Of a stretch of DNA of 64,000 nucleotides, positions 33,247 to 56,400 are shown one piece after another; the stretch's first letter is position 1; every line of letters begins with the position of its first letter. Source of the stretch: Arenicellales bacterium (GTDB lineage Bacteria > Pseudomonadota > Gammaproteobacteria > Arenicellales > JAJDZL01). The notes under the pieces are model-generated. The model ran no database searches. It saw only the letters and a list, made by a program, of their open reading frames with translations, and was not told where the DNA came from. Position numbers and translations under genes: made by a program. The DNA is taken from NCBI GenBank assembly GCA_963664525.1, contig OY761535.1, positions 2,456,082-2,520,081 on the forward strand. Direction: 5' to 3'.

Positions 33247-33435
33247 GATTAGATCACCTTTTGTAGTAGTCTATAGGGTGATATACATTCTACACGGAAT
33301 CTTTGACCCATATACAGTTCGAGCCCAACGAACCTTTTGCTTTATTAGAATTGAATTTCTTGATCAAAGGGCCGCATACCTTTGCTTGTCCAGCCTGGAT
33401 TCGTCAACGCCTGCCTAAAACCTGTGAAAAAATGT

Positions 33436-34611
33436 ATGAGCAATCGATTCGATAGATTTCAAAGTGAGCTTGACTCGCTGCTCGAAAACCACCGCCAAAG
33501 ACAACTCATGCCAAGTCGGGGAATGGATTTCAGCTCGAATGATTTTTTAGCGCTGAGTGATTCACCAGTCATTCGCAAAACTTTGATTGATGCGCTCAAT
33601 GAAGGTATCCCGCTTGGTTCTGGTGGATCGCGTCTTTTGCGCGGTAATCACCCGGCCCATACAGAACTTGAGCGCAAGGCAGCCCAAGTGTTTCATTGCG
33701 AAAAAACACTATTTTTTGCCAATGGGTACTCGGCAAATTTTGCGGTGCTGACTACGCTGGTCAATCGCCACGATCTGATCGTTTTCGATGCGCTGTCACA
33801 CGCAAGCATTCGAGAGGGAATTTCGGCTTCCTGGGCCAAATCGAGCAAGTTTCCGCACAATGACGTGGATGCAGCTGAAAGAGTTCTGGAAAAATGGCAC
33901 AGAAATCGGCAAAAGCATTCCAAGGCCTGGATTGTGGTGGAGAGTCTTTACAGTATGGATGGCGACTTTGCGCCGCTATCTGATTTTCTGGACCTCGCAC
34001 AGCGTTTTGATGCACTGGTGCTGGTTGATGAGGCACATGCAACCGGGGTTTGGGGCAAACGCGGACACGGATTAACAGAACCCTTTGAGGGCCATCCACT
34101 TCTGATTGCTGTGCACACCTGCGGTAAGGCTCTGGGTGTCGCAGGCGCCCTGGTCTGTGCACCGGCGATACTGATTGATTATCTGGTCAACCGGTCTCGA
34201 CCTTTCATATACTCGACTGCGCCACCACCGATTAACGCGATTGCAGTCAGTGCAGCACTGGATCTTTTGGAAAGCGAACCTTTCAGACGCGAGCAGCTTC
34301 GCGAGTTGATTGACTTTGCCAATCATGCGCTAGAACAAAAAATTGGAATACAGGGCAGCGGCAGTCAGATTATTCCATTTGTTGTCGGTGAAGACAAAAT
34401 GGCGCTTGAAGCCGCGCGCGCGATGCTTCAAGCCGGATTTGACGTTCGTGCGATCAGACCACCTACGGTCGCGAATGGCACAGCACGACTTAGAATTTCG
34501 ATTACGCTGAATGTGGATCAACGCGCGGTTTCAGAATTCTTTGATGCCCTCGTCGACGTGGTACATGAGGGATTTGCGCTGTCAAAAAATCTAGACGAGG
34601 CAATGGTTTAG
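33436..34611 (+). CDS. bioF: 8-amino-7-oxononanoate synthase; the last 14 residues come from an IS end
   Basis: DFSSNDFL, GSGGSRLLRGN, HASI, ESLYSMDGD, DEAHATG, TCGKALG, AIRPPTV. An IS is inserted after ...VDVVH. Confidence 0.95.
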   Translation: MSNRFDRFQSELDSLLENHRQRQLMPSRGMDFSSNDFLALSDSPVIRKTLIDALNEGIPLGSGGSRLLRGNHPAHTELERKAAQVFHCEKTLFFANGYSANFAVLTTLVNRHDLIVFDALSHASIREGISASWAKSSKFPHNDVDAAERVLEKWHRNRQKHSKAWIVVESLYSMDGDFAPLSDFLDLAQRFDALVLVDEAHATGVWGKRGHGLTEPFEGHPLLIAVHTCGKALGVAGALVCAPAILIDYLVNRSRPFIYSTAPPPINAIAVSAALDLLESEPFRREQLRELIDFANHALEQKIGIQGSGSQIIPFVVGEDKMALEAARAMLQAGFDVRAIRPPTVANGTARLRISITLNVDQRAVSEFFDALVDVVHEGFALSKNLDEAMV

Positions 34612-34787
34612 AGAAGGGTCGAAAAAACTTTCCCCCAACAAACGGCTGATTAGAGGGCTTTGAGTCGATTCAGCATTGATTTTGGCGAATTTCACCCCAA
34701 CGTCAATTACCCGCCTGCTGGTGCAACGAGGTTTCCCCAAAACCTCTACTATACAGTAATAATGTCTTTATTAACATATACATAGAG

Positions 34788-34816
34788 TTGACATTGGCGC
34801 CACCATGGTGTATCAT
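34788..34816 (+). promoter_or_regulatory. Sigma70-type promoter of the IS transposase
   Basis: TTGACA (34788) - 17 nt - TATCAT (34811), just upstream of the transposase start. Confidence 0.65.
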
Positions 34817-34840
34817 TCATGAGCATAAACAACCACATCC

Positions 34841-36349
34841 ATGACCCAATGGAAATCAAACACCATGGCGACAAAAATAGAAACCAGCCTTTTTTCCTGG
34901 AATAATCCGCAACAACTGCCAAGACTGCAAACACTGGCCCGTGTGCTGGAGATTTTACCGTATCAAGCGTTGGTTGAGGCCCTGTGTGAAAAACGCGGCC
35001 GCGGCCGAAACGATTTCCCGGTCGAAGCGATGTTTCGTCTGGTGATTGCCGGTGTGGTGCTGCAATATCCTTCTGCGGCAGCCTTGCTGCGCAACCTGGA
35101 AACCAACCTGAGTCTGGCCCAGATCTGTGGCTTCAACCCGTTGCCAAGACAGCAACAGTCCAAAACGGTGGTGCATGAGTCGTCGCAAGGACCGGTGACG
35201 TTCGAGACCATTGACTACCCACAGCGCATCACGTTGCCGGATGACTGGGCCTTCAGTCGTTTCCTGACCAGTATGCTGGAGCTGTTGGCCCAGCGAGATT
35301 ATCTCAAAGAGATGTTTGAGCAACTGCGCGAACAATTGCGGGTGGTGGTGCCCGATTTTGGATGCTACCTGGCCTACGACGGAAAAGCAATCCAGAGTCA
35401 TTCCACCGGTCGGGTGAAGCACAAAAGCGGTTACAGTTCAGACCCGGATGCCACCTGGGGCAAACATGAGAGCAAAGGGGTTGACAAAAAGGGTCGTGCC
35501 TGGAGCAAAGTCAAAGAATGGTTTGGATTTCGCTTGCACGCCATTGTGGATTCAGTGAACGAGTTGCCGGTGGATTATCGTGTGACGACGGCGAGCGATG
35601 GTGAGGCGGTGGTGCTGTCACAGATGCTCAAAGAGATGGACGAAACCCATCCGCAGATTCTCGAACGCACAGAGCAGTTAAGTGCCGATCGCGGGTTGGA
35701 TGTCAAGGAGTTGTACCGGGCGCTGTTCGACGATTACCAGATCGAGCCGGTAATTGATAACCGTGATCTTTGGCGTCAGGAAAAAGACGAGGGCAACTAT
35801 GATCCACAAAAGCCGATCTTGAGAATGCTCAACGGTGGCAAGCGCATTGATAACATTGTCTATGCGGAAGATGGGACGCTCATGTGCCGGTGTCCGCACA
35901 CTGACACGGAGCGCGAGATGTATTTTATGGGCTATGAGAAAGATCGGGGGACCTTAAAGTATCGCTGTCCTGCCAAAGCCGGTGGTTATCAGTGTGCTGG
36001 TACGCAACAGTGTCTGCGATACGGCCGCTCGAAGGCGCACCGGTATGGTCGCACGGTGCGAATCAAACTGGATCAGGCCAATCGCAGGATATTTACGCCG
36101 ACACCGCGCAACACGTACAAATGGAAGCGCAGTTATGCGCGGCGCACGGCGGCTGAGCGGTTTTTCTCTCGCATCGCTCAGGGCTACAATTTTGATCACC
36201 ACTATGTACGTGGACTGGTCAAGATGCAGGCCAAAGCGTCGCTGGCCATGGTGGTTGGACTGGCGATGGCGATTTTGCACATTCAAGCCGGTCAGGCGAA
36301 CAACATGCGCTCACTGATCCGACCGATTGCGTTGCTTGATACTGGCTAA
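34841..36349 (+). CDS. DDE transposase (DUF772-like N-terminus)
   Basis: GRGRNDFP, AYDGKAI, DPDATWG, WFGFRLH, ADRGLD, YARRTAAERFFSR. Confidence 0.9.
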   Translation: MTQWKSNTMATKIETSLFSWNNPQQLPRLQTLARVLEILPYQALVEALCEKRGRGRNDFPVEAMFRLVIAGVVLQYPSAAALLRNLETNLSLAQICGFNPLPRQQQSKTVVHESSQGPVTFETIDYPQRITLPDDWAFSRFLTSMLELLAQRDYLKEMFEQLREQLRVVVPDFGCYLAYDGKAIQSHSTGRVKHKSGYSSDPDATWGKHESKGVDKKGRAWSKVKEWFGFRLHAIVDSVNELPVDYRVTTASDGEAVVLSQMLKEMDETHPQILERTEQLSADRGLDVKELYRALFDDYQIEPVIDNRDLWRQEKDEGNYDPQKPILRMLNGGKRIDNIVYAEDGTLMCRCPHTDTEREMYFMGYEKDRGTLKYRCPAKAGGYQCAGTQQCLRYGRSKAHRYGRTVRIKLDQANRRIFTPTPRNTYKWKRSYARRTAAERFFSRIAQGYNFDHHYVRGLVKMQAKASLAMVVGLAMAILHIQAGQANNMRSLIRPIALLDTG

Positions 36350-36618
36350 GGGTCGCGTTGTATTGTGAATTGACTTATCGTAGCGTGGCTGCGAGGGCTG
36401 GGCGCGTCTTGATACCAGTAAAATTGACACAAATATGAACAAACCGCATTTCAGACAAAATATTCGACGCGATTGGCTTGGTCGACGGTCTGTGGAAGAT
36501 GATTATTGCCCCGTCAGTGCCCTGGCGGGCCAACGAGTCGGCGTGGCCGGACGCGAAAATGGCTACAACGCAAATCCCTCTACATTCACTTCATATCAAT
36601 CTGTCATAATCTGGCACT

Positions 36619-37287
36619 ATGGAATCATCGAATGGTCCAACAAGCCGCGGCTATTTAATCACTGGCACTGACACGGGAATTGGCAAGACCGTCGTGTCCG
36701 CAATGTTGGTGCGTGCTTTGAACGCATCTTACTATAAGCCGGTGCAGGCCGGCTTGGACGAAGCGACGGATACGCAGATCGTACAAAAGCTTTCTGGAGT
36801 GTCACCGGAATGGTTGTTTCCGGAAAGTTATCGGCTGATGGAGCCAGCCTCACCTCATCTTTCAGCTGCCATGGAAGGCATTGAAATAGAACTTGCGCGA
36901 CTTCAATTGCCACAGTCCACCCGTCCGTTGATCGTTGAAGGTGCTGGCGGTGTATTGGTACCGTTGACCCGATCGACTCTGTTTGTCGAAATGTTCGCCC
37001 GGTGGCAATTGCCTGCGATTGTCTGTGCGCGCACCTCACTTGGCACAATCAACCATACCTTACTGACCCTGGCGGCACTACGAGATTGGAAAGTGCCCAT
37101 TCATGGGGTGATTTTTGTCGGTGAGGCTCACCCGGAAAATGAGTCGATTATTCCGCAATTTGGGCACGTCAAACACCTTGGACGCTTACCCTTGCTTGAC
37201 CCTCTTAACCAAATGACTATTGCAAGAATTTTTCAGGAAAATTTCAAATTAGCAGATTTTGTGACCGGTCAACCGGAAACAAATTAG
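36619..37287 (+). CDS. bioD: Dethiobiotin synthetase
   Basis: ITGTDTGIGKT, YKPVQAG, ASPH, VEGAGG, LGTINHTLL. Confidence 0.96.
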   Translation: MESSNGPTSRGYLITGTDTGIGKTVVSAMLVRALNASYYKPVQAGLDEATDTQIVQKLSGVSPEWLFPESYRLMEPASPHLSAAMEGIEIELARLQLPQSTRPLIVEGAGGVLVPLTRSTLFVEMFARWQLPAIVCARTSLGTINHTLLTLAALRDWKVPIHGVIFVGEAHPENESIIPQFGHVKHLGRLPLLDPLNQMTIARIFQENFKLADFVTGQPETN

Positions 37288-37794
37288 TTGAGGCTTACTT
37301 TTGGGAATAAAGTGTTGACTTTAATCAAATGCGTTGGCGAAATGATGAGTGGTCAATGATCGAATTCTTGAATGAAATTTGATTCTCCTGTTATATCTTT
37401 GGGTCTTCCCCAATACTAGAGAACGTTCCGTTCGATAAATTTTCAAGCCGAGTCAATTCTCCAACACCCTTTGGCATTGTCCAAATGGATGCAGCAATGT
37501 TGTATTTCACGGTCAATCTATCTCAGTCTACAAAGTGTTCTTTTCAATTCGATTGACTCACACTGAGAGTCGAGTGTCATTTGCCAGCCATCCATTGTTG
37601 TGCCATTGAATGGTGAAAAATTGAGCTATAGCACCCTTTTGACACCCACTGCGAATCGACAGTTTCGAATATCATTGACTTTCAGCACGTTTCTTCATGT
37701 TTATCGCCACTTCGGAAATTTGACCGTTGTGGTTTGATTTCGCCGTGCAGATTCTCGTCCAAACTGAACGACGCCAGGATAAGCAATCAGAATA

Positions 37795-39063
37795 ATGAAA
37801 TCGAATTCACCTATTTGGCATCCATTTACCCAGCACGCGATTTTTCCTGACTTTTTAGAAATTGACCGGGCCAAGGGGGTTTATCTGTATTGCACTGATG
37901 GTCAACGGATCATTGACGCGATTTCATCCTGGTGGGTGATCACACACGGGCACTGCCACCCGCGTATTCAACAAGCAGCCAAGGACCAGATCGAACGTCT
38001 GGACCAGGTTATTTTTGCAGGCTATACTCATGATCCGGCAGAAAGAGCAGCAAGTGCACTGGTCAAGCTCACGCCTGATGGGCTCGATTATGTTTTCTTC
38101 TCCGACAGTGGCTCAACTGCAGTCGAAGTTGGGCTCAAAATGGCGCTTGGCTTCTGGCATCATCTCGGTATTGCACGCAATCGCTTCATCGTTCTGGAGC
38201 ACAGTTATCACGGCGATACCATCGGTACCATGTCGGTCGGTGAACCCGGGGTATTCAACAATCCCTACAAGTCCCTGCTATTTTCGGTCGATTCAATTCC
38301 GTTTCCATCTCAAGGCAAAGAACAGGTAACCCTTGATGCGCTTGAACTCCAATGCAAAGATCGTTCCGATGTCGCCGCACTGATCGTTGAGCCGCTGGTA
38401 TTGGGCGCAGGTGGCATGTTGATGTACTCACCCCAGACGCTCAGGGAAATGAAACGCATCTGCGAAAAGTATGACGTGCTGTTTATTGCAGACGAGGTGA
38501 TGACTGCCTGGGGTCGTACCGGCACTGTATTTGCATGCGATCAAGCAGAGATCGTACCTGATATTGCTTGTTATTCAAAAGGCATCACTGGCGGATTCTT
38601 GCCATTGGCGGCTACGATGTGTCACTCTCGAATATTCGATGCACATTATTCAACGGACCGAAGCAAAACATTCTTTCATTCAAGTTCCTACACGGCAAAT
38701 CCGATCGCTTGCGCGGTCGCTGCCGAAAATTTGGAAATGTGGCAAGAAAGGGAGGTTTTTGAGCAGGTTCAGGCCACTGTGGACATGCAATCACAAAGGT
38801 TGGCGAGGATGGCCAGTGTTGATACGTTTATCAATTTGCGACAAACTGGCACGATTGCGGCGATGGACATCCGTGTTTCTGACAGTGGGTATTTGTCTGA
38901 AATCGGAACTCAACTTTACCTTAAGTTTCAAAAAAGCGGGATCTTGCTTCGACCACTGGGCAACACCATCTACGTACTACCACCCTACTGTATGTCAGAG
39001 GATGATTTTGATACGGTATATGGCGTTATCGCTGATACAGTCAGCGAATTTACGAAATTTTGA
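37795..39063 (+). CDS. bioA: Adenosylmethionine-8-amino-7-oxononanoate aminotransferase
   Basis: WHPFTQH, DAISSWW, SDSGSTAVE, YHGDT, DEVMT, SKGITGG, HSSSYTANP, LRPLGNTIY. Confidence 0.96.
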   Translation: MKSNSPIWHPFTQHAIFPDFLEIDRAKGVYLYCTDGQRIIDAISSWWVITHGHCHPRIQQAAKDQIERLDQVIFAGYTHDPAERAASALVKLTPDGLDYVFFSDSGSTAVEVGLKMALGFWHHLGIARNRFIVLEHSYHGDTIGTMSVGEPGVFNNPYKSLLFSVDSIPFPSQGKEQVTLDALELQCKDRSDVAALIVEPLVLGAGGMLMYSPQTLREMKRICEKYDVLFIADEVMTAWGRTGTVFACDQAEIVPDIACYSKGITGGFLPLAATMCHSRIFDAHYSTDRSKTFFHSSSYTANPIACAVAAENLEMWQEREVFEQVQATVDMQSQRLARMASVDTFINLRQTGTIAAMDIRVSDSGYLSEIGTQLYLKFQKSGILLRPLGNTIYVLPPYCMSEDDFDTVYGVIADTVSEFTKF

Positions 39064-39153
39064 TTGGATTTTTCCAGAAACCTGCGCCAGCTGAACCAAT
39101 GTGGGACACACAGAAGCAACACGACAAATGACAAAAATCTTTAAGGTATCAGT

Positions 39154-39696
39154 TTGACTGCCCGTTTCAAAAAAATTGCCATTGTTTGTGCTGGTCTCAT
39201 CTTGGCATTCAGCGCTGCTTTACTGATTCCAATTGCTGGTACAGACACTTCAGTCGAGGAAAATTGGAAGCAAACACTCAATTGGGTGAGGGATGATTTT
39301 CCACGAGTTCGTCATATCTCAACCGATGAACTAGCCGAGTTGCTCCAGGAGCAAACTGATATTGCACTATTGGATACAAGAGAGCCCGAAGAATATGAAA
39401 TAAGTCATCTCAAGGGAGCTGTTTTGGCACAGGATGTCGGCGATGCGCTGGATGCGCTGGAAGACCGTACGCGAGATGAACTTGTCGTTGTATATTGTTC
39501 TGTTGGCTACCGATCGTCAAATCTTGCGGCGAAACTTGCCCGACAAGGCTACTCCAACGTCGTCAATGTTGAAGGTTCGATTTTTAAATGGGCGAATGAA
39601 AATCGTCCGATTTACCGCGGCAACAAGGAAGTTTCAAAGGTCCATCCTTATGACGACGAGTGGGGGCAACTGCTGGAGCGAAAGTTTTGGCCTTGA
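39154..39696 (+). CDS. Membrane-anchored or exported rhodanese-like domain protein
   Basis: N-terminal hydrophobic segment; LLDTREPEEYEISHLKGA, VVYCSVGYRS, NVEGSIFKWAN. Confidence 0.88.
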   Translation: MTARFKKIAIVCAGLILAFSAALLIPIAGTDTSVEENWKQTLNWVRDDFPRVRHISTDELAELLQEQTDIALLDTREPEEYEISHLKGAVLAQDVGDALDALEDRTRDELVVVYCSVGYRSSNLAAKLARQGYSNVVNVEGSIFKWANENRPIYRGNKEVSKVHPYDDEWGQLLERKFWP

Positions 39697-39743
39697 CTGT
39701 TGACTTGAGGAACTGAAGCTGGGTATTTCACCGCAGGGGATTA

Positions 39744-40805
39744 ATGAAAGAATTTCCGACAATTGAGCGCAGTATTTGGCGCAGCCCGCCTCCAGTTCAG
39801 TTCGAATCCATCATTGCCGCAACTGAGCTGTCGCAAACACGTACATTGGCATTGATCGACGCACCGACATACTTCAATCTAGTCCGCGTTCCCATGCCTG
39901 TCAAGGAAGCAGATGTTCTAGACGCACTGGCAGCCAATCAATTGCTTGTGCGTACCGGTAGCGATCAATGGAGTGTCACCAACCTTGGCGCCATACTTCT
40001 CGCCCATCGCCTTGCTAAGTTTCCAAACCTTCAGTCCAAGGCGATACGAATCGTTCAATACCAGGGTAATGGTCGAATAAAGCAAATCTTGCAGCAAAGT
40101 GCGGACAAAGGCTATGCCAATGGTTTCGAGGACTTGTTCGATACTGTCATTCGAATGCTCCCCATCATTGAAGAGGGAAAATGCACTCGTGATGCAACGA
40201 TGCCAGCCTGGCCTGAGACGGCACTGCGAGAACTGATTTTGAATGCCATGATTCATCAGGATTTCTCGACAAAAGGTACAGGAACGCTCATCGAAATTTT
40301 TTCTGACCGTGTCGAAATATCCAATCCTGGTCCACCGCTAGTTGACGTCCAGCGCCTTGTCAACACGCCGCCGATTTCAAGAAATCATGGCTTGACCGCA
40401 ATGATGCAAAAAATGAATCTCATCAACCTGACTGGCAGCGGATGGGACAAGATTGTCACCGAAACAGAACAATATAAGATGCCGGTACCTTTGGCTGAAG
40501 TTGAAAGCAATGTGACTCGGGTTGTACTCTTTTCACCACGAGACTTGTCCGACATGGACCGTGAGACTCGAATCTGGTCGATCTACCAACACGCCTGTCT
40601 GCAATTGGCTAATCGTGATTACCTGACCAATGCCTCGCTTCGAAATCGATTTGGCATTGAACTGAAAAACAGTGCCATTGCATCACGTCTGATCAAAGAG
40701 GCCGTCGAGGCCAATGTAATCATTCCCTGTGAAGCAAACATCGGTCGAAAGCACATGCGCTATGCACCCGCATGGGCTGATTTGACGAGCGATATATTTA
40801 TTTGA
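39744..40805 (+). CDS. HATPase_c_4 (RecG C-terminal-like) ATP-binding protein lacking the usual N-terminal AlbA_2/Schlafen domain
   Basis: TNLGAILLA, KAIRIVQY, ALRELILNAMIHQDF, IEIFSDRVEISNPG, SRN, GSGWDKI, LTNASLRNRFGI, MRYAPAWA. Confidence 0.75.
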   Translation: MKEFPTIERSIWRSPPPVQFESIIAATELSQTRTLALIDAPTYFNLVRVPMPVKEADVLDALAANQLLVRTGSDQWSVTNLGAILLAHRLAKFPNLQSKAIRIVQYQGNGRIKQILQQSADKGYANGFEDLFDTVIRMLPIIEEGKCTRDATMPAWPETALRELILNAMIHQDFSTKGTGTLIEIFSDRVEISNPGPPLVDVQRLVNTPPISRNHGLTAMMQKMNLINLTGSGWDKIVTETEQYKMPVPLAEVESNVTRVVLFSPRDLSDMDRETRIWSIYQHACLQLANRDYLTNASLRNRFGIELKNSAIASRLIKEAVEANVIIPCEANIGRKHMRYAPAWADLTSDIFI

Positions 40806-40964
40806 TGCTTATTTGACAATAACTACATTCTTGTTTTATTGAAACAACAAGTCTTTCAGTTATTATTGTCTTTATAACGGTATTACAAATCTAGTATCCC
40901 AATTATCGGCCAGTACGGTTAACGTGAATACAGGACTTCTTAATATTAATATCATAAATAGTGT

Positions 40965-40992
40965 TTGACAGAAAACCAAAATAGAGTATAAT
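40965..40992 (+). promoter_or_regulatory. Consensus sigma70 promoter whose -35 box lies inside the left IR of the IS
   Basis: TTGACA (40965) - 16 nt - TATAAT (40987), pointing towards the transposase. Confidence 0.7.
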
Positions 40993-41114
40993 ATGTCAAT
41001 ATAAACAATGATGTAGAGGCAGACTTCTGGCACCGAAGATTTCCCGAATCAAGCCAAATATTCGCCTAAAACCCCCAAATTTCTCCTTTTTGATACAATC
41101 TTCAGGCCCTGACC

Positions 41115-42551
41115 ATGCGAAAAGTCAAATCCACACAATCTGAACTGGGCGGCACCTTTATCGCCGATATCGTCATTAGCTCGAAATCGCGCGATGACAT
41201 TCCGGCCTTGCTCAGGGGTCTGCAATATCTGTATACCAACCCGCAGTTGCGAAGCGAAGTCTTTACACTGCTTGATGCACAAGTGAATCCCAAAGCCCGT
41301 AAGGACACCGGTCGTCCGGGCATGGAGCTTTGGCGCATTCTGGTCCTGGCGATCCTCAAGCAGGGTCTGAATTGCGATTACGACCGCCTCACTGAGCTGG
41401 CCAACGAGCATGGCACCTTGCGACAAATGCTGGGCCACGGGGTGATGGCGCACGAATACGAGCGACAAACCGTGATGGATAACGTCACCTTGCTGAGCCC
41501 GCAACTGTTGGCCAAGATCAACCAACTGCTGGTCCAGGCCGGCCACGAGGTGGTTAGAAAAAAGCCTGGCGAAACATTGCGCGGGCGTTGTGATTCGTTC
41601 TGCGTTCAAACGGATGTTCATTTTCCAACCGATGTCAATTTGTTGTTTGATGCCATGCGTTGCAGCATCACAACAGCGGTCTGGCTCGCCGAGCAGTTGG
41701 ATCTTGAGGGCTGGCGCCAGCATCGTCATATTCAAAAAAAGATCAAACAAGCATTCAACCGCGTGCGAACGTCCAAGAAGAATAAGAATTCGCCCGTGCA
41801 GGTGAACGAGTACCTGGCCCAGTGTCAACAATACCTGAATCGTGCACAGGGTACGCTCAAGCAGGTCGAGGCGTTTGAGCTGACGCTTTTTCAGCAAGCT
41901 AAAGTCGTGCAACTTCAAAACTATATCCGCCACGCACACCGTCAGATCGATCAGGTCACGCGGCGCTTGGTGCGCGAGGAGAAGATTCCTCACCGGGACA
42001 AAGTGTTTTCGGTCTTTGAGCCACACACCCGTTGGGTGGTCAAAGGCAAAGCCGGTGTCCCGCAAGAGCTCGGCGTGCCGGTCTGTGTGGTGGAGGACCA
42101 CTACCGATTTATCCTGCATCACCGTATCCTGTGGGACGGCAGTGATGTTGACCATGCTGTACCGGTCATCGAGCAAGCCCGGCAAAGCTTTCCTGACTTG
42201 AACAGCTGCAGTTTCGATCGTGGCTTTCATTCGCCGGCCAATCAGGTGGCGCTCGGTGAGTTGCTCGATGAATGCGCACTGCCGAAAAAAGGCTATCGCA
42301 ATATCAACGACAAGATGCATGAGTCGCAGCCGTGGTTCAAAGCCGCGCGTGGCAAGCACCCTGGCATTGAGTCGGCGATCAATCATCTGGAGCACTGCGG
42401 GCTGGACCGGGTTCGGGACCACGGCAAAACAGGTTTTGCCCGTGCGGTGGCGCTGTCGGTACTGGCTGCCAATCTGAAGCGGCTGGGTAGGATCTTGCGC
42501 GACAAAGAGCGTCAGAAACTCGCCCGTCAGCAGCGTTTGCGCGCCGCTTAG
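41115..42551 (+). CDS. ISNCY family transposase
   Basis: KSRDDIP, GRPGMELW, RCDSFCVQTDVHFPTD, KVFSVFEPHTRW, SFDRGF, HPGIESAINHLE. Confidence 0.9.
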   Translation: MRKVKSTQSELGGTFIADIVISSKSRDDIPALLRGLQYLYTNPQLRSEVFTLLDAQVNPKARKDTGRPGMELWRILVLAILKQGLNCDYDRLTELANEHGTLRQMLGHGVMAHEYERQTVMDNVTLLSPQLLAKINQLLVQAGHEVVRKKPGETLRGRCDSFCVQTDVHFPTDVNLLFDAMRCSITTAVWLAEQLDLEGWRQHRHIQKKIKQAFNRVRTSKKNKNSPVQVNEYLAQCQQYLNRAQGTLKQVEAFELTLFQQAKVVQLQNYIRHAHRQIDQVTRRLVREEKIPHRDKVFSVFEPHTRWVVKGKAGVPQELGVPVCVVEDHYRFILHHRILWDGSDVDHAVPVIEQARQSFPDLNSCSFDRGFHSPANQVALGELLDECALPKKGYRNINDKMHESQPWFKAARGKHPGIESAINHLEHCGLDRVRDHGKTGFARAVALSVLAANLKRLGRILRDKERQKLARQQRLRAA

Positions 42552-42928
42552 CATTTCAATTCACCCATCGGAAACGAAAATCCGGGTGCCGGAGGCACGG
42601 CTGTGGGCTAAATTCGTGATTTTGCCCTGTTTTGGCACTGGATTGTCACAATTCGCCCTGACAGTCCGGCGTTAGTCTTGCTCGGGCTCATTGTCGGTCA
42701 AATGTATTCTGAATTCTCGCCTAAAATCGGGGGTTTTCTGACTGACACTAAATAACAATAGTTTATGTTATTTGATGTTTAATTGATCAGTAGGAAACGA
42801 CGTTTTTCGTTTGATTTGTTTTAGATCCCCGTTCCTGATCCCATTTCACAATGACAGATGGAGAAATCGGAGCCGTTGCAACACAAGTCGCTTCGACTGA
42901 ATGCACAATCGTATCTGCGAAACAACGA

Positions 42929-43639
42929 TTACGACGATACTTGAGTAACAGCAGCCGTAGTTGTTGGCTTCATTACGGAATGGTTAATGGTGTCTTCGTC
43001 AAGCCTGAGTTGGATGGCTTTCATCAACCTGCAAAATAATCTTCGCTCGACTTTCCAAAAGTAGTCGATGTGCGATTTGGCGTAAAGTTCGTCATCGTCC
43101 AGCCGGCGAACCATACTGTTCAAGTGACCTTGTTCTTCCGCCAGCAATTTTGCCAGTGAAAAATCCAGATTACAGCGCTTGATGCAATCTTCGAGAATCT
43201 GATAGCCCCATACTGCCCGGAATTCTACAATCAACGACATGTAAAGATAAATCGTACGGTAATTTGCATCCCGCCCGAAATATCCAACCATCGCAGCCTC
43301 GAGCCTGGCAAAGTAAGCCCGGGCAAAGGCCGGCGCGATCAGCAGTGAGTCTGCATAATCCAATCCTGTACCTTTGAACCGTTCCGCCTGTCTTTTGAAC
43401 AACACGGCGTGACCGGTCTCCTCATTCAAATGCTTTAGTGTCGAATAATCAATGACGTCACCTCTTTGAGTCGCCATGATTTTGTAACTTCCGATATGCT
43501 CCATGTACGATAGCGTGTTGAAAAACAGCCAGCGCAATCGAGCGTCGACACAAAGGTCCATAAAGACCTTTTCAGTCCATGCGCCAAGATCGTCGTTATC
43601 GCGGACGAATTCGTGAACGAGGCTCGGGATTTCAGTCAT
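42929..43639 (-). CDS. Ferritin-like diiron protein, BioE-like (candidate pimeloyl-generating oxygenase)
   Basis: Ligand pattern E...ExxH...E...ExxH: NTLSYMEHIG, LKHLNEETGH, IVEFRA, LAEEQGH. Its ATG overlaps the bioB stop (TAATG). Confidence 0.7.
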   Translation of the reverse strand: MTEIPSLVHEFVRDNDDLGAWTEKVFMDLCVDARLRWLFFNTLSYMEHIGSYKIMATQRGDVIDYSTLKHLNEETGHAVLFKRQAERFKGTGLDYADSLLIAPAFARAYFARLEAAMVGYFGRDANYRTIYLYMSLIVEFRAVWGYQILEDCIKRCNLDFSLAKLLAEEQGHLNSMVRRLDDDELYAKSHIDYFWKVERRLFCRLMKAIQLRLDEDTINHSVMKPTTTAAVTQVSS

Positions 43640-44649
43640 TACGCAAGCGATTGTTTGAGTGGGTTCAATTCAACTTCAGGTTCATCGAAACAGACAGGTG
43701 GCATGTCTGTGATGCCTAATTTGTCAAAAAGTGCAGAATCATGATCATATTCGACATTGTCTGTCGTCAGCAAGCGATCACCGACAAAAATGGAATTGGC
43801 GCCAGCGAAAAAACACAAAGCCTGGAGTTCTTCCGACATGGTGCGTCGCCCGGCTGACAACCTCAACACTGATTTGGGCAACATGATTCTTGCCACTGCA
43901 ATAGTACGAACAAAGTCAAGTGGCTCAACTTGCCGCGCATTCTGCAACGGCGTTCCCGGAATGGGAACCAGCATATTGATCGGCACACTTTCTGGCGGTT
44001 CATCCATATTGGCAAGCACTCTGAGCATACTGGCGCGGTCTCGTTGCGATTCACCCATACCAAGAATACCACCACAGCAGACTTTCATGCCTGCTTCGCG
44101 GACGTAGTCGATGGTCTGTAGCCGATCCTCAAATGTTCGCGTGCTTATGATTTCGCCGTAAAATTCGGGAGAGGTGTCCACATTGTGATTGTAATAATCC
44201 AGGCCGGCTGCTTTCAATTGCGAAGCCTGCTCAAGATTTAGTAATCCCAATGTCATACAGGTTTCAAGCCCCAGGGCTTTTACTTCGCTGATCATAGTGC
44301 AAAGTTTCTCCATATGACTGGCTTTGGGGCCGCGCCAAGCGGCACCCATGCAATATCGACTAGCACCATCAGCCTTTGCTGATTTAGCATCGGCGATCAC
44401 CGCTTCGATTGACATCAGTTTGCTTGGCTCCACTTCAGTCGAGTATCGAATCGACTGACTGCAATACTTGCAGTCCTCAGGACAGCCTCCTGTTTTAATG
44501 TTGACGAGGCGACTTTTTTGCACCTGGTTGGGAACGAAGTTTTGACGATGCACTGTTTGCGCCTGGTAGAGCAACTCGCTGAATGGTAAATCAAATAGCG
44601 CTAGCGTGTCAGATTTTGACCAGGTTTGTTTGTCGATTGCTTGGCCCAT
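43639..44649 (-). CDS. bioB: Biotin synthase
   Basis: [15 protein letters not shown] (CxxxCxxC), [46 protein letters not shown] 44649 preferred. Confidence 0.97.
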
Positions 44650-44787
44650 TGGGAAAATTAGATCTCCAGGAAATTGAAATCTGGCTGATTGACTCGGTTT
44701 AATATACAACACTCAGCGATTTAACAGCGATAGCATAAATCGATAAGTGAATTCGTATCTTGCGATAGTTGCAAATATCCCACAAAA

Positions 44788-45696
44788 ATGCCCGAGTCCT
44801 GGATTCTGATTACCATAGCCGCTGCTTTTTTTCAAAATATTCGCTCGGCATTACAAAAACATCTCAAGCGCAAACTGTCGGTCGGTGGCGCGAGCTATGC
44901 TCGATTTCTATACGCACTGCCGATCGCGGCGATTTATCTTTGGTTGGTCCTTAATGTTGGTGATCACACGCTGCCTGTCAGCAATTCCCGATTTGTGTGG
45001 TTCTGTCTTTTCGGCGCTATCAGTCAGATTTTATTCACTGCCTGTTTGTTGTGGATGTTTTCATTTAAGAGTTTCGCTGTCGGCACGACATTTTCGAAGC
45101 TTGAAGTGATTGTCGTTGCACTGTTTGGCGCAGTACTGCTGGGTGATAAATTAGGCATCTGGGCAGGTGTTGCCATTGTTATTTCATCCATGGGAGTCAT
45201 TCTATTATCACTTGGGCAGAACAAACTGACATTCGCAAGTTTGCGTAGCGGCCTGTTTCGTCGCCCCACCTTGATCGGGCTAATTTCAGCGGTTTTGCTT
45301 GGGGCTTCATCGGTGTTCTATCGAGGTGCATCCTTGGCGCTGCAGTATGACAACTTTGTGATCAGTGCTGCCTGGACCTTGTTTATTGCCCTGATCATCC
45401 AAACCACCCTCATGGGCACTTACCTGGTTTTGCGAGAGCCCGGGCAACTGGCTCGAGTCTTACGCGAATGGCGCTGGGCAGCGCCGGCCGGTGCTGCTGG
45501 CGCACTTGCGTCGATCGGCTGGTTTAGTGCATTCACGATTCAAAATGCCAGCTATGTTCGTGCACTGGGGCAGATCGAACTGGTGTTTACCTTTGTTGCT
45601 ACGACAATGTTCTTTCGAGAAAAAGTTACGCCAGCTGAATTTTTTGGCATTGTTTTGGTCTGCGGCGGTATCCTGTTATTGCTCCTGGGTGGATAA
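44788..45696 (+). CDS. DMT/EamA family transporter
   Basis: Ten TMs; AAFFQNIRSALQK, FAVGTTFSKLE, NASYVRALGQIEL. Confidence 0.88.
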   Translation: MPESWILITIAAAFFQNIRSALQKHLKRKLSVGGASYARFLYALPIAAIYLWLVLNVGDHTLPVSNSRFVWFCLFGAISQILFTACLLWMFSFKSFAVGTTFSKLEVIVVALFGAVLLGDKLGIWAGVAIVISSMGVILLSLGQNKLTFASLRSGLFRRPTLIGLISAVLLGASSVFYRGASLALQYDNFVISAAWTLFIALIIQTTLMGTYLVLREPGQLARVLREWRWAAPAGAAGALASIGWFSAFTIQNASYVRALGQIELVFTFVATTMFFREKVTPAEFFGIVLVCGGILLLLLGG

Positions 45697-50355: not shown

Positions 50356-50455
50356 TATCCTGCAATTCGAACCGAGGTCGAAGGATTCCGTGTCAGAGCA
50401 CAGAATCGGCTACGACCACACTAATAGAAACAAGAATACCAAGGAAGGTGTTCCC

Positions 50456-53400
50456 ATGTCCGCAACCGCAAATTCAAGAACTAGGCGTTCGATTGCTGCA
50501 GACATAATTGTTGGCGCGGTAAGTAGAACGGTACGTTGTCTCCTTAGATCACAAACTGTCAGAAAATCTCTGGCAATCCTCCTGTTTGTACCGGCTTTCT
50601 TCTCGCTTGCACTTCCAAATTTGGCTCTTGCGGCAGACCCACCTGTTCAGTTCGATAGAGGACCTCAAGCGCCGTTTGAAGGAAACCCTCTAGTCGTTAG
50701 AATTTCTCGAGTAGGCTCTACCTCAGAGAGGCTTGTTGTAAATTGGGAGACATTAGAGCCCCTGACGACAGGGGCAGTCGATTTCGCAACGCCAGTAGAT
50801 GATTTTGTCGCAAATAACGGTACATTAACTTTTGAACCGGGAGATCGCAGCAGTAAGGAGATTTCCATCGCTACAATAACAGACACCGCATATGAACCAC
50901 TGGAATTTATCAGAATACGCTTGCACGGTACACATCAGAGCGAAACGTTTGATTTCACCAATGTCAAGGGAACCGGTAGTCGCTTAAGTGATTATGGAGA
51001 CGCTTTTATACAGGAAAAAGATCCGCGCACCGTTGAAATCACGCCTAAGACATCCAGCGACAAACTTGAATTCAACGAAGGCAATCCCGGGTCGCTGACC
51101 GTTACATTAAATAATGAACTGCCCTATGATTTAAAAATCTCCTACTTTGCTGATGACGCACGTCACCGTTCGGCTACGCAAATGACAGGTGACGGTAATT
51201 CAAAAATGGCTGATTTCAATGTCGGCATAACCACAGATAAGAATAGCATTTTGATCGCAAAAGGTTTTACTACTGGATCGATCAATTTCTCCGGTCACAT
51301 CATTAATGATTCTGTCGCCGAGCCTGCGGAAAAGTTTGCAATGACATTCCAAACGGACCCGGTACTGCCTGCTGGCAGCCATTCCAGGTACAAAGCAGTT
51401 CAATTTCGTAGCGATGGAAATTACTCAGGTTCTCGTGCCTATAAAGGGTTTGAAGTAACAATCGTTGATGATGATACTTCCACTAAACCAGTTATATATC
51501 TGCACGGGAGTGACAGACTTCAAACATCTTTTTCACTCAATCTCAATCGCCGTGATGACACAAGTATTCCGAGCACCCAAGTTGAACTCAATGAAGGGCA
51601 AACTCACACGATAACAGCTACGCTGGCGGGTGGCACAGTTGGAAGCGCTGTCGACATCCCACTCAAATTTACTGGATATCCTTCCAGTGAAGCAACGGCA
51701 TCCGACTATACGATGTCAAAAACGATCACAATTCCAGCAAATCAGACATCCGGTAGCGCCGTATTGACCATTAATGATGATGACAAAGATGAGAGGCAAA
51801 AGGAATTATTAGCTATCGAGGTTAATGGTTCACATTCAAATTTTCCCAGTAGCGTCACCAAGGGAGACCGCAGCAGGTTTGAGGTCATCATGATCGACAA
51901 TGACCCTACCGATTTGGTGTTCAAGCCATTCAATAGATCGCCTGCAGAGATCTTCGAAAAACAAGACAGCCAGAATCGACAGTTAAATTTCAGTGTCGAA
52001 GTGTCGCGAGCGCCCTTCAGTGAGCCGGGAGGGACTAAACCGTTTACCTACGGTCAGCTTCGTGAAGGTAATATCCGCTTCGATTTGAATTTTGGCAACG
52101 CGGGGAAAGAAAGCAGACAAGCACGATCTGATGTCGATTTCGAAGCATCGCCAAAATTCAGAAACATCAGTTCGGGTGGTTTTCAAAATTTTTGCAGACC
52201 CGTCAGCGGTAAACCAACCTGCGCATTTACTCTTACCGCCAAAGACGACAACATATATGAGACAGACGAAAAAGTAAAAATTTCTTTGAGCCACAGCGGC
52301 GGCACTAATTTGAGGGTAAAGGGATCAAATGAACTGATTTTCACAGTCAAAGACGACGAATTACAGCCAAAATTTTCAATTAATGATGTAGCGGAAACAG
52401 AAGGAGGAAAACTGACGTTCGCGGTCACTCGGGCAGGTGCAGCGGGGAACAGGATTTCAGTCAAGGCAAGTACTGCGAACAGCACTGGGGACAACCTCGC
52501 AACGGTTGGAGATGACTATTCGAGTGCTTCGAGGGAGTTGACCTTTGCGCCGAACGTTACATCACAAAATTTCGAAGTTCAAACGAACCAAGACATCATT
52601 GATGAACCAAATGAAACGTTTCTAGTTAATCTAACTGAACCGAAGAGCAAAGACGGAAATCCTGCTCCAGCAGTTGATGACGGTAAAGCGACCGGCACGA
52701 TCAATGATGATGATGATGCGCCTGATGCTTTGACTATTTCAGTTGACACCGATACTGAAACTGATCCTGCAGAATCAGATATTAGCGAAGATGCAGGCGA
52801 AACAACAGTAAAGGTGACAGCAACGATCACAAGTGCAACCCGGTTTGCGACTGAAAAAAAAGTTAACGTCAAAATTGGAAATAGTGATGACTCGGCGGTT
52901 GAAGGTACCGATTACGGAACAGTAGCGGATATCGAAATTACGATTCCGGCGGGAGAAGCAAGTGGCTCCATGGATGTGATGCTGACTCCAACGAACGACG
53001 ATATTGATGAGCCAGACAAAACGATCTCTGTAGAAGGTACGCTGGCAGACGTAACAGTTACGCACGCTAAACTCAATCTGATTGATGATGAAGTCAAACC
53101 GACAGTGACATTGGAACTAGCTGCTGACAGCATTAGCGAGGCTGGCGGGACGACGACAGTGAAAGGGACGTTGAGCGGTAAATCAAGTGAGGCGGTGACG
53201 CTGACGCTTGCTGCCGTGGAAGAGGCGTATACGCTGTCTGGCACAGCGTTAACAATTCCAGCAGGAGAGAAGGAGAGTAGCCCAGTAACAATCACGGCGA
53301 CAAACAACCATGTAGATGCAGACAACAATGAGGTGTCTGTGTCGGCGATGGCGAGTGGCGGCAACGATGTGGAAGACCCAGACGACCAGACGCTGACAAT

Positions 53401-56400
53401 CACCGATGATGACGTGCGCGGGGTGACGGTATCGAAGGCTACAGTCTCGATAAAAGAAATTGATGATGCAGAGACGAACGACAAGGAGCATCAAGACACC
53501 TACACGGTGAAGCTGAACAGTGAACCGTCTAAAGGTACGGTGACAGTGAAGGTGGGCAGTAAACACCCCTTGGTAGCGACGGTGGACAAAGCAAGTCTGG
53601 AGTTTACGAAAGAAAATTGGAGCACAGCTCAAATGGTGACGATTACCGCCGTGGATGATGATGTTTACCATGCAGATGATCAGCGAACGACGAGTATTAC
53701 CCATACGATCATTGCCTCGGGCAATGACTATGCAGACAAGAATTTAGAAGTTGCTCCAGTGGCTGTGACGGTCACTGGCAATGAAACCAAGCCTGTGGCC
53801 ACTTTAGTGTTGAATCCTACGAGCATTGGTGAGAAAGGTGGTTCAACAACAGTGACTGCGACGCTGAGCGGCAAGTCGAGTGAGGCGGTGGTATTGAAGG
53901 TGTCTGCGGCAGCGGGAACCGGTGCGGTGGCTAGAGATTTTAGTTTGTCTGACGACACCGAGTTAAAGATCGCCGCGGGTGCGACAGCAAGCACTGGGAC
54001 GGTCACGATCACGGCAGTGGACAATTCGATCGATACAGATAACAAACCGGTGACGGTCTCGGCAACGGCAACAGGCGGCAACGGTGTCGCTGCCCCTGCC
54101 GACCAAACGCTGACACTCACCGATGATGATGTGCGCGGGGTGACGGTATCGAAGGCTACAGTCTCGATGAAAGAAATTGATGATGCAGAGACTGACGACA
54201 AGGAGCATCAGGACACCTACACGGTGAAGCTGAACAGTGAACCGACAGGCACGGTGACAGTCAATGTGGCCAGTGGTACCGCATCCGTGGCAACGGTGGA
54301 CAAGACAAGTCTTTCTTTTACCACTTCGAACTGGAGCACGCCACAGGTGGTGACGGTCACCGCTAAAGACGACATCATTGACAATACAGGCGATGAGCGC
54401 ACGACGAATATCACCCATACAGTTGTTGCCGGCACCAGTGACTATGGGGGTGTGACAGCGAGTCCTGTGGCAGTGACGGTCGAAGATGAAGATGTAGCGC
54501 CAAGTGCATTGGAGATCACGGTGGACGCGGATTCGAAGACCGGTGGCAATCAGACCGAGATCAGCGAAGGCAGTGATGCAACGACAGTGACGGTGACGGC
54601 GACGATCACCAGTGCGACGCGCTTTGCGATGGCGAAGATGGTGACGGTGACGGTGGGCAAGTCAGGCGATTCAGCGACAGAGGGGACCGATTACGGCAAT
54701 GTCGCAAATGTCAGCATCACGATCCTGAAAGGTGCGGTGAGTGGGTCGAAGGATATCACGTTGACGCCGACGAACGACACAATCGATGAGCCGGATGAGA
54801 CCATCAGTGTTGAGGGTACGTTGGCCGGGGTGACGGTTACGCATGCGCAGTTGACGTTGAAAGACGATGATGCGACGCCGACGGTGACGCTGGAGTTGGG
54901 CAGTGCCAGCATTGGTGAAAACGCCCAGACGACGACGGTGAAAGGGAAGTTGTCGGGTGCGTCGAGTCAGGCTGTGACCTTGGAGTTTTCAGCGCTGGCG
55001 AATGTATATACCTTGAGCGGGACCACGCTGACGATCGCTGCCGGCAGTGTTGAGAGCACCGGGACGTTGACCATCACGGCGGTGGACAATCAGGTGGATG
55101 CCGCTAATCGGGTTGTGTCGATATCGGCGACAGTGACCGGTGGCAATGGAGTGGAAGCACCGGCTTCGAAGACCTTGACGATCACCGATGATGATGTGCG
55201 CGGGGTGACGGTGACGGGGTCTCCCCTGACGGTTAACGAGGTGGACAATACAGGTACGACCGACGAGAACGAGCACCAAGCGACGTACACGGTAAAACTG
55301 AACACTGAGCCAACAGGTACGGTAACGGTCAATGTAGCAAGTGACGCTACATCGGTGGCAACGGTGAACAAGGCAAGTCTGGAGTTTACAACAGCGAACT
55401 GGAAAACGACTCAAACGGTGACCGTTACCGCTAAAGATGACGATCGCGACAATACAGGCAATAAGCGCACGACAAGCATTACACATACGATAAGTGCTAC
55501 GGGTACGGACTATGCTGATTCGAATTTAACAGTCGATTCTGTGGCTGTGACGGTCAACGACGACGAAGTCTTACCGGTGGTGAGTTTGAGTTTAGGTTCT
55601 TCGAGCATTGGTGAAAAGGGTGGTTCAACAACGGTGACAGCCACCATGGTCGGGAAATCAGACAAAAATGTGGTTTTAACGGTCTCAGCGGCGGCGGGCA
55701 CCGGTGCGGTGGCTGGCGACTTTACGTTGACAGGCACGACGTTGACGATTGCCGCGGGCTCTCAAGTCAGTACCGGCACGGTGACAATCGCTGCGGTGGA
55801 CAATGATGTGGACACGGCTAACAAGACGGTGACGGTTTCAGCAACGGCAAGTGGCGGCAATGGGGTAGCGGCTCCAGAAGACCAAACGCTAACGATCACC
55901 GATGATGATGTGCGCGGGGTGAACATTTCAGAAGATACCGTCACAGTTGACGAGGCGGACAATACAGGTACGACTGAAAAGAATGAGCACAAGGCCACTT
56001 ACTCGGTGGTGCTGGATAGTCAGCCAACAGGGACAGTGACAATCAATGTAGCAAGTAGCGCCACATCCGTGGCTACGGTGGACAAGGCAAATCTTTCTTT
56101 TACGACTTCGACCTGGAGCAAGCCACAAACAGTAACGATTACCGCCAAGGATGACGCAATCGATAATACAGGCGATAAGCGAACAACAAGCATTACCCAT
56201 ACAGTAAGTGCTTCCAGTACCGATTACAAAGACGAGACTGCCGCATCTGTATCAGTAACTGTTACAGACAATGATGGTTTGCCGGTGGTCAGTTTAGTGC
56301 TGACTTCTGCGAGCATTGGTGAGAAAGGCGGTTCAACAACCGTGACAGCCACCATGAACGGCACGTCAAGTCAGAATGTGGCTTTAACGGTCTCAGCGGC

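Follow-up and report, generated by a model that had tools for sequence, protein, structure and literature searches.

BioE, a ferritin-like diiron oxygenase described in December 2025 from Elizabethkingia and Chryseobacterium, converts C14-C18 acyl-CoA (CoA, coenzyme A) or acyl-ACP (ACP, acyl carrier protein) into pimeloyl-CoA or pimeloyl-ACP and a C(n-7) acid; the reaction depends on O2, and the enzyme complements an E. coli delta-bioH strain (PMC12704756). In the present study, we examined a stretch of 64,000 nucleotides (nt) from an uncultured bacterium of the order Arenicellales (contig OY761535.1, positions 2,456,082 to 2,520,081; hereafter, the window means this whole stretch), in which the open reading frame (ORF) of a 236-amino-acid (aa) protein adjoins the biotin synthase gene bioB. 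Our analysis indicates that this ORF probably encodes a divergent BioE, which would supply the pimeloyl thioester for biotin synthesis.

Three BioE proteins have been characterised, namely EmBioE from Elizabethkingia meningoseptica, CiBioE from Chryseobacterium indologenes, and CpBioE from Chlamydia psittaci (PMC12704756, PMC12915131). The diiron ligands are E26, E53, H56, E125, E155, and H158 in EmBioE (PMC12704756) and E41, E68, H71, E140, E170, and H173 in CpBioE, for which eleven pocket residues have also been named (PMC12915131); each of the six ligands is essential in both proteins (PMC12704756, PMC12915131). The nearest solved relative of BioE is the cyanobacterial aldehyde-deformylating oxygenase (ADO) (PMC12704756). 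A published survey, in which more than 40% identity to EmBioE and more than 85% coverage were required, gave the range of BioE as Weeksellaceae, Flavobacteriaceae, Chitinophagaceae, Sphingobacteriaceae, Flectobacillaceae, Burkholderiaceae, and Chlamydiaceae (PMC12915131). In Weeksellaceae, the module includes an adjacent gene for a MocR-type repressor, BioL; as Chlamydia has none, BioL is not a defining feature. An earlier note on the window, made from its letters, had described BioE, and that description matches what PMC12704756 and PMC12915131 report. Oxidative cleavage of a long acyl-ACP between C7 and C8 to pimeloyl-ACP is also carried out by BioI (CYP107H1) of Bacillus subtilis (PMC12704756). 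This functional analogue differs in being a haem P450, not a diiron enzyme, and is not homologous to the BioE-like protein studied here.

In the pathway that we propose, the 236-aa protein would be an O2-dependent ferritin-like diiron oxygenase that binds a fatty acyl-ACP or acyl-CoA of about C14-C18, cuts it oxidatively at the C7-C8 bond, and releases a pimeloyl thioester. BioF would condense this thioester with alanine, and BioA, BioD, and BioB would then finish biotin. The protein would be the sole pimeloyl source in the genome, replacing BioC/BioH, BioZ, or BioW/BioI. This reading draws on homology, conserved ligands, the predicted fold, the linkage to bio genes in operons, and the way in which the protein is distributed among genomes, and, for the chemistry, the substrate, and the carrier, we infer from the published work on BioE. 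The kind of enzyme is already known; what is new is the clade, together with the hosts in which it occurs and the gene module to which it belongs.

The region consists of two convergent units, with bioF, bioD, and bioA on the plus strand and bioB and the 236-aa ORF on the minus strand. The genes of the predicted pathway are as follows.

33436-34611, plus strand: bioF, 8-amino-7-oxononanoate synthase (TIGR00858, 354 bits; PF00155)
36619-37287, plus strand: bioD, dethiobiotin synthase (TIGR00347, 137 bits, cut-off 83; PF13500)
37795-39063, plus strand: bioA, adenosylmethionine--8-amino-7-oxononanoate transaminase (NF004624, 589 bits, cut-off 494)
42929-43639, minus strand: predicted BioE-like ferritin-type diiron oxygenase, 236 aa (ligand set, family alignment, fold, overlap with bioB)
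43639-44712, minus strand: bioB, biotin synthase (TIGR00433, 414 bits, cut-off 225; PF04055, PF06968)

The family models bear out the presence of bioF, bioD, bioA, and bioB, which the earlier note had read from translations. TIGR00858 was the best model for BioF, although its 354 bits are under the cut-off of 426; the bioF reading frame is open from a TTG at 33382, and its likely start is the ATG at 33436. The bioB frame is open from a GTG at 44712, the ATG proposed earlier being at 44649. At the junction on the minus strand, gcgTAATGactgaa (TAATG), the stop codon of bioB and the start codon of the 236-aa ORF have one base in common, as had been noticed before, and the gene is predicted from this overlap to be translationally coupled to bioB.

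The four strings on which the ligand set E/ExxH/E/ExxH had been proposed, NTLSYMEHIG (residues 41-50), KHLNEETGH (69-77), VEFRA (138-142), and EEQGH (168-172), are all present in the translation, giving E47, E74xxH77, E139, and E169xxH172 as the predicted diiron ligands. We aligned 33 homologues with 36-74% identity to the window protein (alignment A1), and E47, E73, E74, H77, E139, E168, E169, and H172 were invariant (33/33). Because the ligand residues are invariant in homologues of this diversity, the predicted ligand set is more than a chance motif. The protein itself did not match any Pfam or NCBIfam model, and a relaxed Pfam scan (E <= 10) gave one chance-level match (RIIa, E 0.29). None of the 143 relatives obtained in a word-indexed search had a Pfam domain. 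A profile search of the full library gave 662 cluster representatives at E <= 0.001 (523 at E <= 1e-10), many of them of about 200-215 aa, and in a protein-cluster atlas the only matches were clusters of 'hypothetical protein', in which Rubrerythrin, AurF, and DUF455 were minority annotations, and these were uninformative. As of June 2026, Pfam and NCBIfam do not recognise even the canonical BioE type.

To relate the protein to published BioE, we used P0231, a protein from a Bacteroidota metagenome-assembled genome (MAG), which showed 29% identity to the window protein over 202 residues (BLASTP, E 1e-22). P0231 has 3052 relatives; among the matches listed were Ferruginibacter albus (P0334), Microscilla marina (P0339), Sphingobacteriales, and Chitinophagaceae, and none of the best 120 of the 3052 came from Weeksellaceae or Chlamydia. 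A tblastn search of plasmid sequences with P0231 gave no match. In an alignment of 30 Bacteroidota-type relatives of P0231 (alignment A2), the invariant residues included E26, E53, H56, E125, E155, and H158, numbered identically to the EmBioE ligands, and, with an offset of 15, seven of the eleven CpBioE pocket residues corresponded to invariant or near-invariant residues of A2 (W18, L22, I33, V120, I124, Y132, and Y135). Because of the identical ligand numbers, these seven pocket residues, and the overlapping taxa, we infer that A2 represents the published BioE family.

A comparison of A1 with A2 by hhalign gave a probability of 100 and an E of 1e-49 over 202 columns with 28% identity, and all the ligand columns were aligned. 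By this comparison, the homology of the 236-aa protein to the BioE-type family is clear, though distant. It has the same six-ligand site as EmBioE, CiBioE, and CpBioE, with four of the five spacings identical (27/3/62/30/3 in the window protein versus 27/3/69/30/3 in EmBioE and CpBioE), and the motifs NTLS.ME, LKH..EE..HA, and EE.GHL in common, and, judged by the EmBioE numbering, its N-terminus is longer by 21 residues. Of the pocket residues of CpBioE that could be mapped, three recur unchanged in the window protein (L43, I54, and Y146), and F39, M46, M134, and V138 are conservative replacements.

The structure of the window protein was predicted with AlphaFold 2 on A1; the model had a predicted local distance difference test score (pLDDT) of 92.5 and eight helices. 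Foldseek with this model found nothing in the PDB at E <= 0.001. VIA-align against 48,161 chains gave as the top match 8fhc_B, a protein with aldehyde-deformylating activity (Z 15.8, root mean square deviation 3.3, 196 residues aligned), followed by the HDO and TenA folds (Z 12-14) and Synechococcus ADO (Z 13.0). Because helical bundles score high by default, we regard this fold match as supportive only. In a search of PDB sequences with the A1 profile (E <= 10), 12 of the 13 chains matched were cyanobacterial aldehyde decarbonylase/ADO, the best ADO match having an E of 1.3e-4 and covering the C-terminal half only. No BioE structure was met in the PDB by either Foldseek or the profile search.

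The absence of the usual pimelate-supply genes, which had been observed in the window, was found to hold for the whole genome (3.458 Mb in one contig, 97.4% complete). The best match to BioC was 52 bits versus a cut-off of 185, and that to BioH was 73 bits versus 207, the best BioH matches resembling PcaD (3-oxoadipate enol-lactonase); no complete bioC-bioH route was thus found in the genome. BioW and BioG had no matches there. The sole KAS III gene of the genome is the housekeeping FabH gene (NF006829, 451 bits), and the BioZ of Mesorhizobium, used as a query, found only this gene, with 36% identity.

We then took a census of 121 genomes of the order Arenicellales. The BioE-like protein was present in 20 of them, namely in 19 of the 20 that belong to the same family as the window and in G030, from another family. 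BioB was found in all 20 of these genomes and BioC over the cut-off in none, and none of the 30 genomes with BioC over the curated cut-off contained the BioE-like protein. Among the 44 BioB-positive genomes without the protein, 38 had a BioC-like match at E <= 1e-20 (hand count), and in the stretches fetched from nine sister-family genomes the BioC-like match was no more than about 3 kb away from bioB, the clusters having the order bioB-F-...-C-D. Sub-threshold BioC-like matches (76-140 bits) occur in seven of the 20 protein-holding genomes, 86-146 kb from bioB. The BioE-like protein thus complements the absence of BioC across the order. The sole genome of the same genus without the protein, G088 (single contig, 95% complete), is also without BioB and without a BioA that reaches the cut-off; it does encode a BioY transporter (C1:699368-699793), which was not found in G000 (the window genome) or G012, and G088 has apparently switched from biotin synthesis to uptake. 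In G030, the genes bioB-F-D-A are followed by a canonical-type BioE gene (L114:7728-12442, G030:C6), the product of which is 44-50% identical to the Bacteroidota members, and no BioC match at E <= 1e-20 was found in this genome. Both types of BioE therefore occur within one order.

In a scan of species-representative genomes, we obtained 80 loci with relatives of the protein and searched their flanks by tblastn with the Bio proteins of the window. The closest loci were those of MAGs labelled Arenicellales. Bio genes were inside the flank in 43 loci; the other 37 had none in the flank, some of these being short contigs. In all 33 Arenicellales-type loci, bioB is directly upstream, and most of them also have bioA-bioD-bioF convergent downstream. 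A one-strand order of bioB-F-D-A followed by the BioE-like gene was found in loci labelled Mycobacteriaceae, Rhodospirillales, and Magnetovibrio and in one labelled only Pseudomonadota, and bioF-D-A followed by the BioE-like gene in a Betaproteobacteria locus and two labelled only Proteobacteria; in an Acidimicrobiia locus on a short contig, only bioA was seen. In a tree of the BioE-like proteins rooted on six canonical-type proteins, all 34 rows of the window clade were bio-linked (Shimodaira-Hasegawa-like approximate likelihood ratio test (SH-aLRT) value, 100), and the canonical-type proteins formed a separate clade on a long branch (0.96). Two rows, L068 and L071, were ORF-extension artefacts (702 aa, cut to the last 235 residues; branch length 10), and their placement was ignored. 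The homology to the BioE-type family, the six ligands, the linkage in the window clade, and the complementarity with BioC together support the BioE-type entry to biotin that the earlier note had proposed.

The late genes of the pathway were compared with the bioBFDAZ operon of a Mesorhizobium plasmid, and the identities were 64% for BioB, 51% for BioF, 53% for BioD, and 61% for BioA; BioA proteins from alphaproteobacterial plasmids share 59-62% identity with the window BioA. In bioBFDA clusters of other lineages that contain the BioE-like protein, BioF is 49-56% and BioD 46-58% identical to the window proteins, versus 33-40% and 31-37%, respectively, in the BioC-type clusters of the sister families. 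In a first BioF tree (29 rows, with 10 Arenicellales rows kept and tblastn segments of less than 300 residues dropped), 18 BioF sequences from protein-holding clusters grouped (SH-aLRT 99) apart from those of BioC clusters, and in a second tree (26 rows) the BioF of the Mesorhizobium BioZ cluster was nested inside the group of protein-holding clusters. The exception is the BioF of locus L092, which groups with the BioC type. By identity and tree position, the late genes are of the type found in alphaproteobacterial bioBFDAZ operons, as had been suggested from their appearance.

BioZ catalyses the Claisen condensation of glutaryl-CoA with malonyl-ACP and needs no O2. It resembles the 236-aa protein in its fifth position after related bioB, bioF, bioD, and bioA genes and in its role in the pathway, pimeloyl supply, but it is KAS III-like, with an unrelated fold and chemistry. 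The data fit a moving bioBFDA module in which the fifth place seems to be open to different genes for pimeloyl supply, either bioZ, canonical bioE, or divergent bioE. The mosaic pathway of the earlier note stands insofar as late genes of alphaproteobacterial type are combined with a BioE-like gene; the combination is, however, not peculiar to this organism. As bioBFDA with this fifth gene is also found in MAGs labelled Rhodospirillales, Betaproteobacteria, and Mycobacteriaceae, the mosaic was probably not assembled here.

Several observations weigh against the identification of the 236-aa protein as a BioE. Its identity to the canonical type is only 28-29%, and the survey threshold of 40%, which was a search setting of the published survey and not a definition of BioE, is probably not reached. 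At two pocket positions, residues of another kind are found (Leu is replaced by G145, and Tyr by L149), and canonical BioE has 7 residues more in the segment that joins the second ligand helix to the third. The tie to EmBioE, CiBioE, and CpBioE runs through proxies and published residue numbers. In the protein tree, a gammaproteobacterial sister clade of 30 rows (L060, L064, L066, L069, L073, L074, L076-L089, L091, L093-L097, and L099, including Candidatus Rariloculus) is wholly unlinked to bio genes, so that the linkage of homologues by which the earlier note would have judged its reading holds for the window clade and not for this one. Of the genomes of the unlinked clade, five were checked; all have bioB, and in four a BioC-like gene (130-159 bits in these genomes, below the cut-off) is directly beside it. 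Given this sister clade in bioB-bioC genomes, family membership alone is no proof of a role in biotin synthesis, and the unlinked clade may have a role other than biotin. Finally, an insertion sequence (IS) of the IS1182 type sits exactly at the bioF-bioD junction. A comparison with six relatives showed that 14 IS-encoded residues stand in place of about seven poorly conserved native ones at the C-terminus of BioF; the conserved BioF core is undamaged (the TIGR00858 profile is covered up to position 364 of 365), and the diiron gene and bioB are untouched by the insertion. Because the element replaced the last bioF codons and parts bioF from bioD-bioA, the present integrity of the pathway is not certain.

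Two further features of the window genome count against the diiron protein as the pimeloyl source and would suit another route: a degenerate BioC-like methyltransferase gene (G000:C1:2819052-2819828; L001:1453-2229) downstream of mnmA-coaE, and six P450 match segments, two of which are adjacent halves of one gene. The methyltransferase together with an unrecognised esterase (the genome has many alpha/beta hydrolases), or a BioI-like P450, might make the pimeloyl moiety, in which case the diiron protein would be redundant or would have a different function. The methyltransferase matches the BioC model only, and its orthologue in the congener G040, with the same mnmA-coaE synteny, scores 140 bits to that model and keeps ELGCRSG. 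The window-genome copy, however, is the 52-bit match mentioned above and is located about 319 kb from bioB; it has ILVIGMQND where the BioC of the sister families has ILDVGCGTG, and the glycine-rich S-adenosylmethionine (SAM) loop is thus lost. This gene looks like a relic and may be a decaying remnant of the BioC route. All the P450 matches are separated from the bio genes by over 1 Mb and fall short of any curated family cut-off, and the best candidates for BioH resemble 3-oxoadipate enol-lactonase. As such a route would also leave the 34/34 bio linkage and the co-loss in G088 unexplained, we consider it unlikely.

The translational coupling predicted in the Arenicellales clade and the ferritin-like fold might instead suggest an accessory of BioB that supplies or protects iron for its sacrificial cluster, comparable to BsaP with mycobacterial BioB (BsaP is named in the introduction of PMC12704756). 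In other clades, however, the gene follows bioA instead of bioB, its presence and absence track BioC and not the type of BioB, and the conserved hydrophobic pocket, with the three residues identical to those of CpBioE, is common to the enzyme family. A BioB accessory would, moreover, leave the genome without a pimeloyl source, and this role seems very unlikely to us. Among proteins of solved structure, only cyanobacterial ADOs are related to the 236-aa protein by sequence and fold, which, with the unlinked sister clade, could point to an aldehyde-deformylating or other fatty-acyl oxygenase that is unrelated to biotin and stands beside bioB by chance. The ADO match is weak compared with that to the BioE-type family (E 1.3e-4 in one half of the protein versus E 1e-49 over 202 columns), and the bio linkage is conserved across phyla. 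We regard a chance neighbour of this kind as extremely unlikely. No acyl-ACP reductase, the partner of an ADO, was found among the locus proteins scanned, a genome-wide search for one not having been made.

A divergent BioE in biotin synthesis thus remains our preferred interpretation of the 236-aa protein. A wider scheme, which we put forward only tentatively and hold to be rather doubtful, is that the BioE-like family is broader than published and comprises at least three lineages. In this scheme, the canonical lineage would be the Bacteroidota/Chlamydia type; the short-loop lineage, an interchangeable fifth gene carried on the bioZ-type bioBFDA module, would have displaced the ancestral BioC route in one Arenicellales family, where the methyltransferase is now decaying; and the unlinked gammaproteobacterial lineage, in bioB-bioC genomes, would have taken up another oxidative cleavage of fatty acyl chains, one that does not serve biotin synthesis.

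In the case of the unlinked clade, the neighbouring genes of four loci encode DUF945, polysaccharide deacetylase, and DUF6152 proteins, and no common theme was established. The gene for the DUF945 protein is next downstream in L081 and next but one in L087. In G124 (C8:339711-340572) and G125 (C3:459784-460699), two MAGs of this clade, bioB was matched as two overlapping pieces in different frames, due to either a frameshift or an assembly error.

The window locus resembles those of EmBioE, CiBioE, and CpBioE in several further respects: the predicted ADO-like ferritin fold, the position in a bio cluster, and a genome without BioC/H, BioZ, and BioW/I. It resembles the locus of Chlamydia in having no BioL; none of the 10 locus proteins scanned had a GntR/MocR architecture, the search for a BioL-type repressor being confined to them and not made genome-wide. 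The window gene differs in that it follows bioB, whereas the known bioE heads bioEFD or ends bioBFDA, and in its host, an Arenicellales gammaproteobacterium. The Bacteroidota-type homologues (P0231, P0334, and P0339) and the G030 copy are homologous to the window protein over the 202 columns with all the ligand columns in common, but belong to the separate clade, are of about 200-215 aa, and have the longer inter-helix segment. The cyanobacterial ADOs (5uwz and 5k53) and 8fhc have the nearest solved fold, in which a fatty chain is bound by a four-helix core with a diiron site, and cyanobacterial ADO is the only PDB family matched by the profile; the sequence similarity is, however, marginal and limited to the C-terminal half, and cyanobacterial ADO converts fatty aldehydes to alkanes and has no linkage to bio genes.

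If the identification is correct, the BioE route would gain a divergent subfamily with about 28% identity, whose hosts are uncultured Gammaproteobacteria (Arenicellales) and MAGs with the labels Rhodospirillales, Betaproteobacteria, and Actinomycetota. The family list given in PMC12915131 contains none of these four. Because the survey behind that list required more than 40% identity to EmBioE, the window clade would be outside the reported range. We found no report of this clade in the literature on Arenicellales and biotin or, since 2024, on BioE and diiron, although the supplements of PMC12704756 and PMC12915131 may show further proteobacterial homologues. Because Pfam and NCBIfam do not recognise even the canonical type, annotation pipelines would call such genomes biotin-incomplete or wrongly auxotrophic, and reconstructions from symbiont and environmental MAGs would be corrected accordingly. 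The unlinked sister clade is at the same time a warning against reading a biotin function from homology alone.

On the plus strand, bioF is followed by the IS1182-like element, bioD, and bioA, and then by genes for a rhodanese-domain protein, a HATPase_c_4 domain protein, and an ISNCY transposase. The remaining features around the two units are as follows.

34567-36580, plus strand: IS1182-like insertion sequence between bioF and bioD (NF033551, 102 bits, below cut-off; PF01609)
39154-39696, plus strand: rhodanese-domain protein (PF00581; NF045521, 123 bits, below cut-off)
39744-40805, plus strand: HATPase_c_4 domain protein (PF13749)
41115-42551, plus strand: ISNCY-family transposase (NF033593, 479 bits, cut-off 325), 378 nt downstream of the BioE-like gene
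44788-45696, plus strand: EamA-family transporter (PF00892), divergent from bioB

The IS1182-like element contains a transposase ORF (34841-36349) and has 16-nt terminal inverted repeats (34567-34582 and 36565-36580; GAGGGATTTGCGCTGT / ACAACGCAAATCCCTC), the right one of which ends 39 nt before the start of bioD. The rhodanese gene directly follows bioA in the window. Of the 80 related loci, 12 (L024-L034 and L038) had a homologue inside the fetched flank, and in about four of these (L024, L030, L032, and L038) it was the immediate neighbour of bioA. A link of this protein to the sulfur supply for BioB is only a thought. In L035 and other more basal relatives, the two bio units lie side by side, but in the window they are parted by the ISNCY transposase gene and the HATPase_c_4 gene; the latter is probably accessory or mobile DNA between them. 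A neighbour corresponding to the EamA transporter, with 81% identity, was found only in L024 (1 of the 80 loci), and it is uncertain whether the transporter is part of the bio unit; the E. coli biotin importer YigM belongs to the same EamA-transporter superfamily.

A scan of 42500-45000 gave 4 promoter-like sites, with 3.1 expected, and 5 terminator-like sites, with 2.4 expected, from which no conclusion was drawn. None of the five sequencing runs containing this stretch was an RNA run, and no Rfam family reached its gathering score across the whole window. An rRNA operon as the cause of the strong positive GC/AT skew at 52-60 kb was rejected, as there was no Rfam match. The skew is accounted for by a single ORF of 3394 aa (50390-60574), which has Calx-beta and weak LapA-type matches and the look of a giant adhesin.

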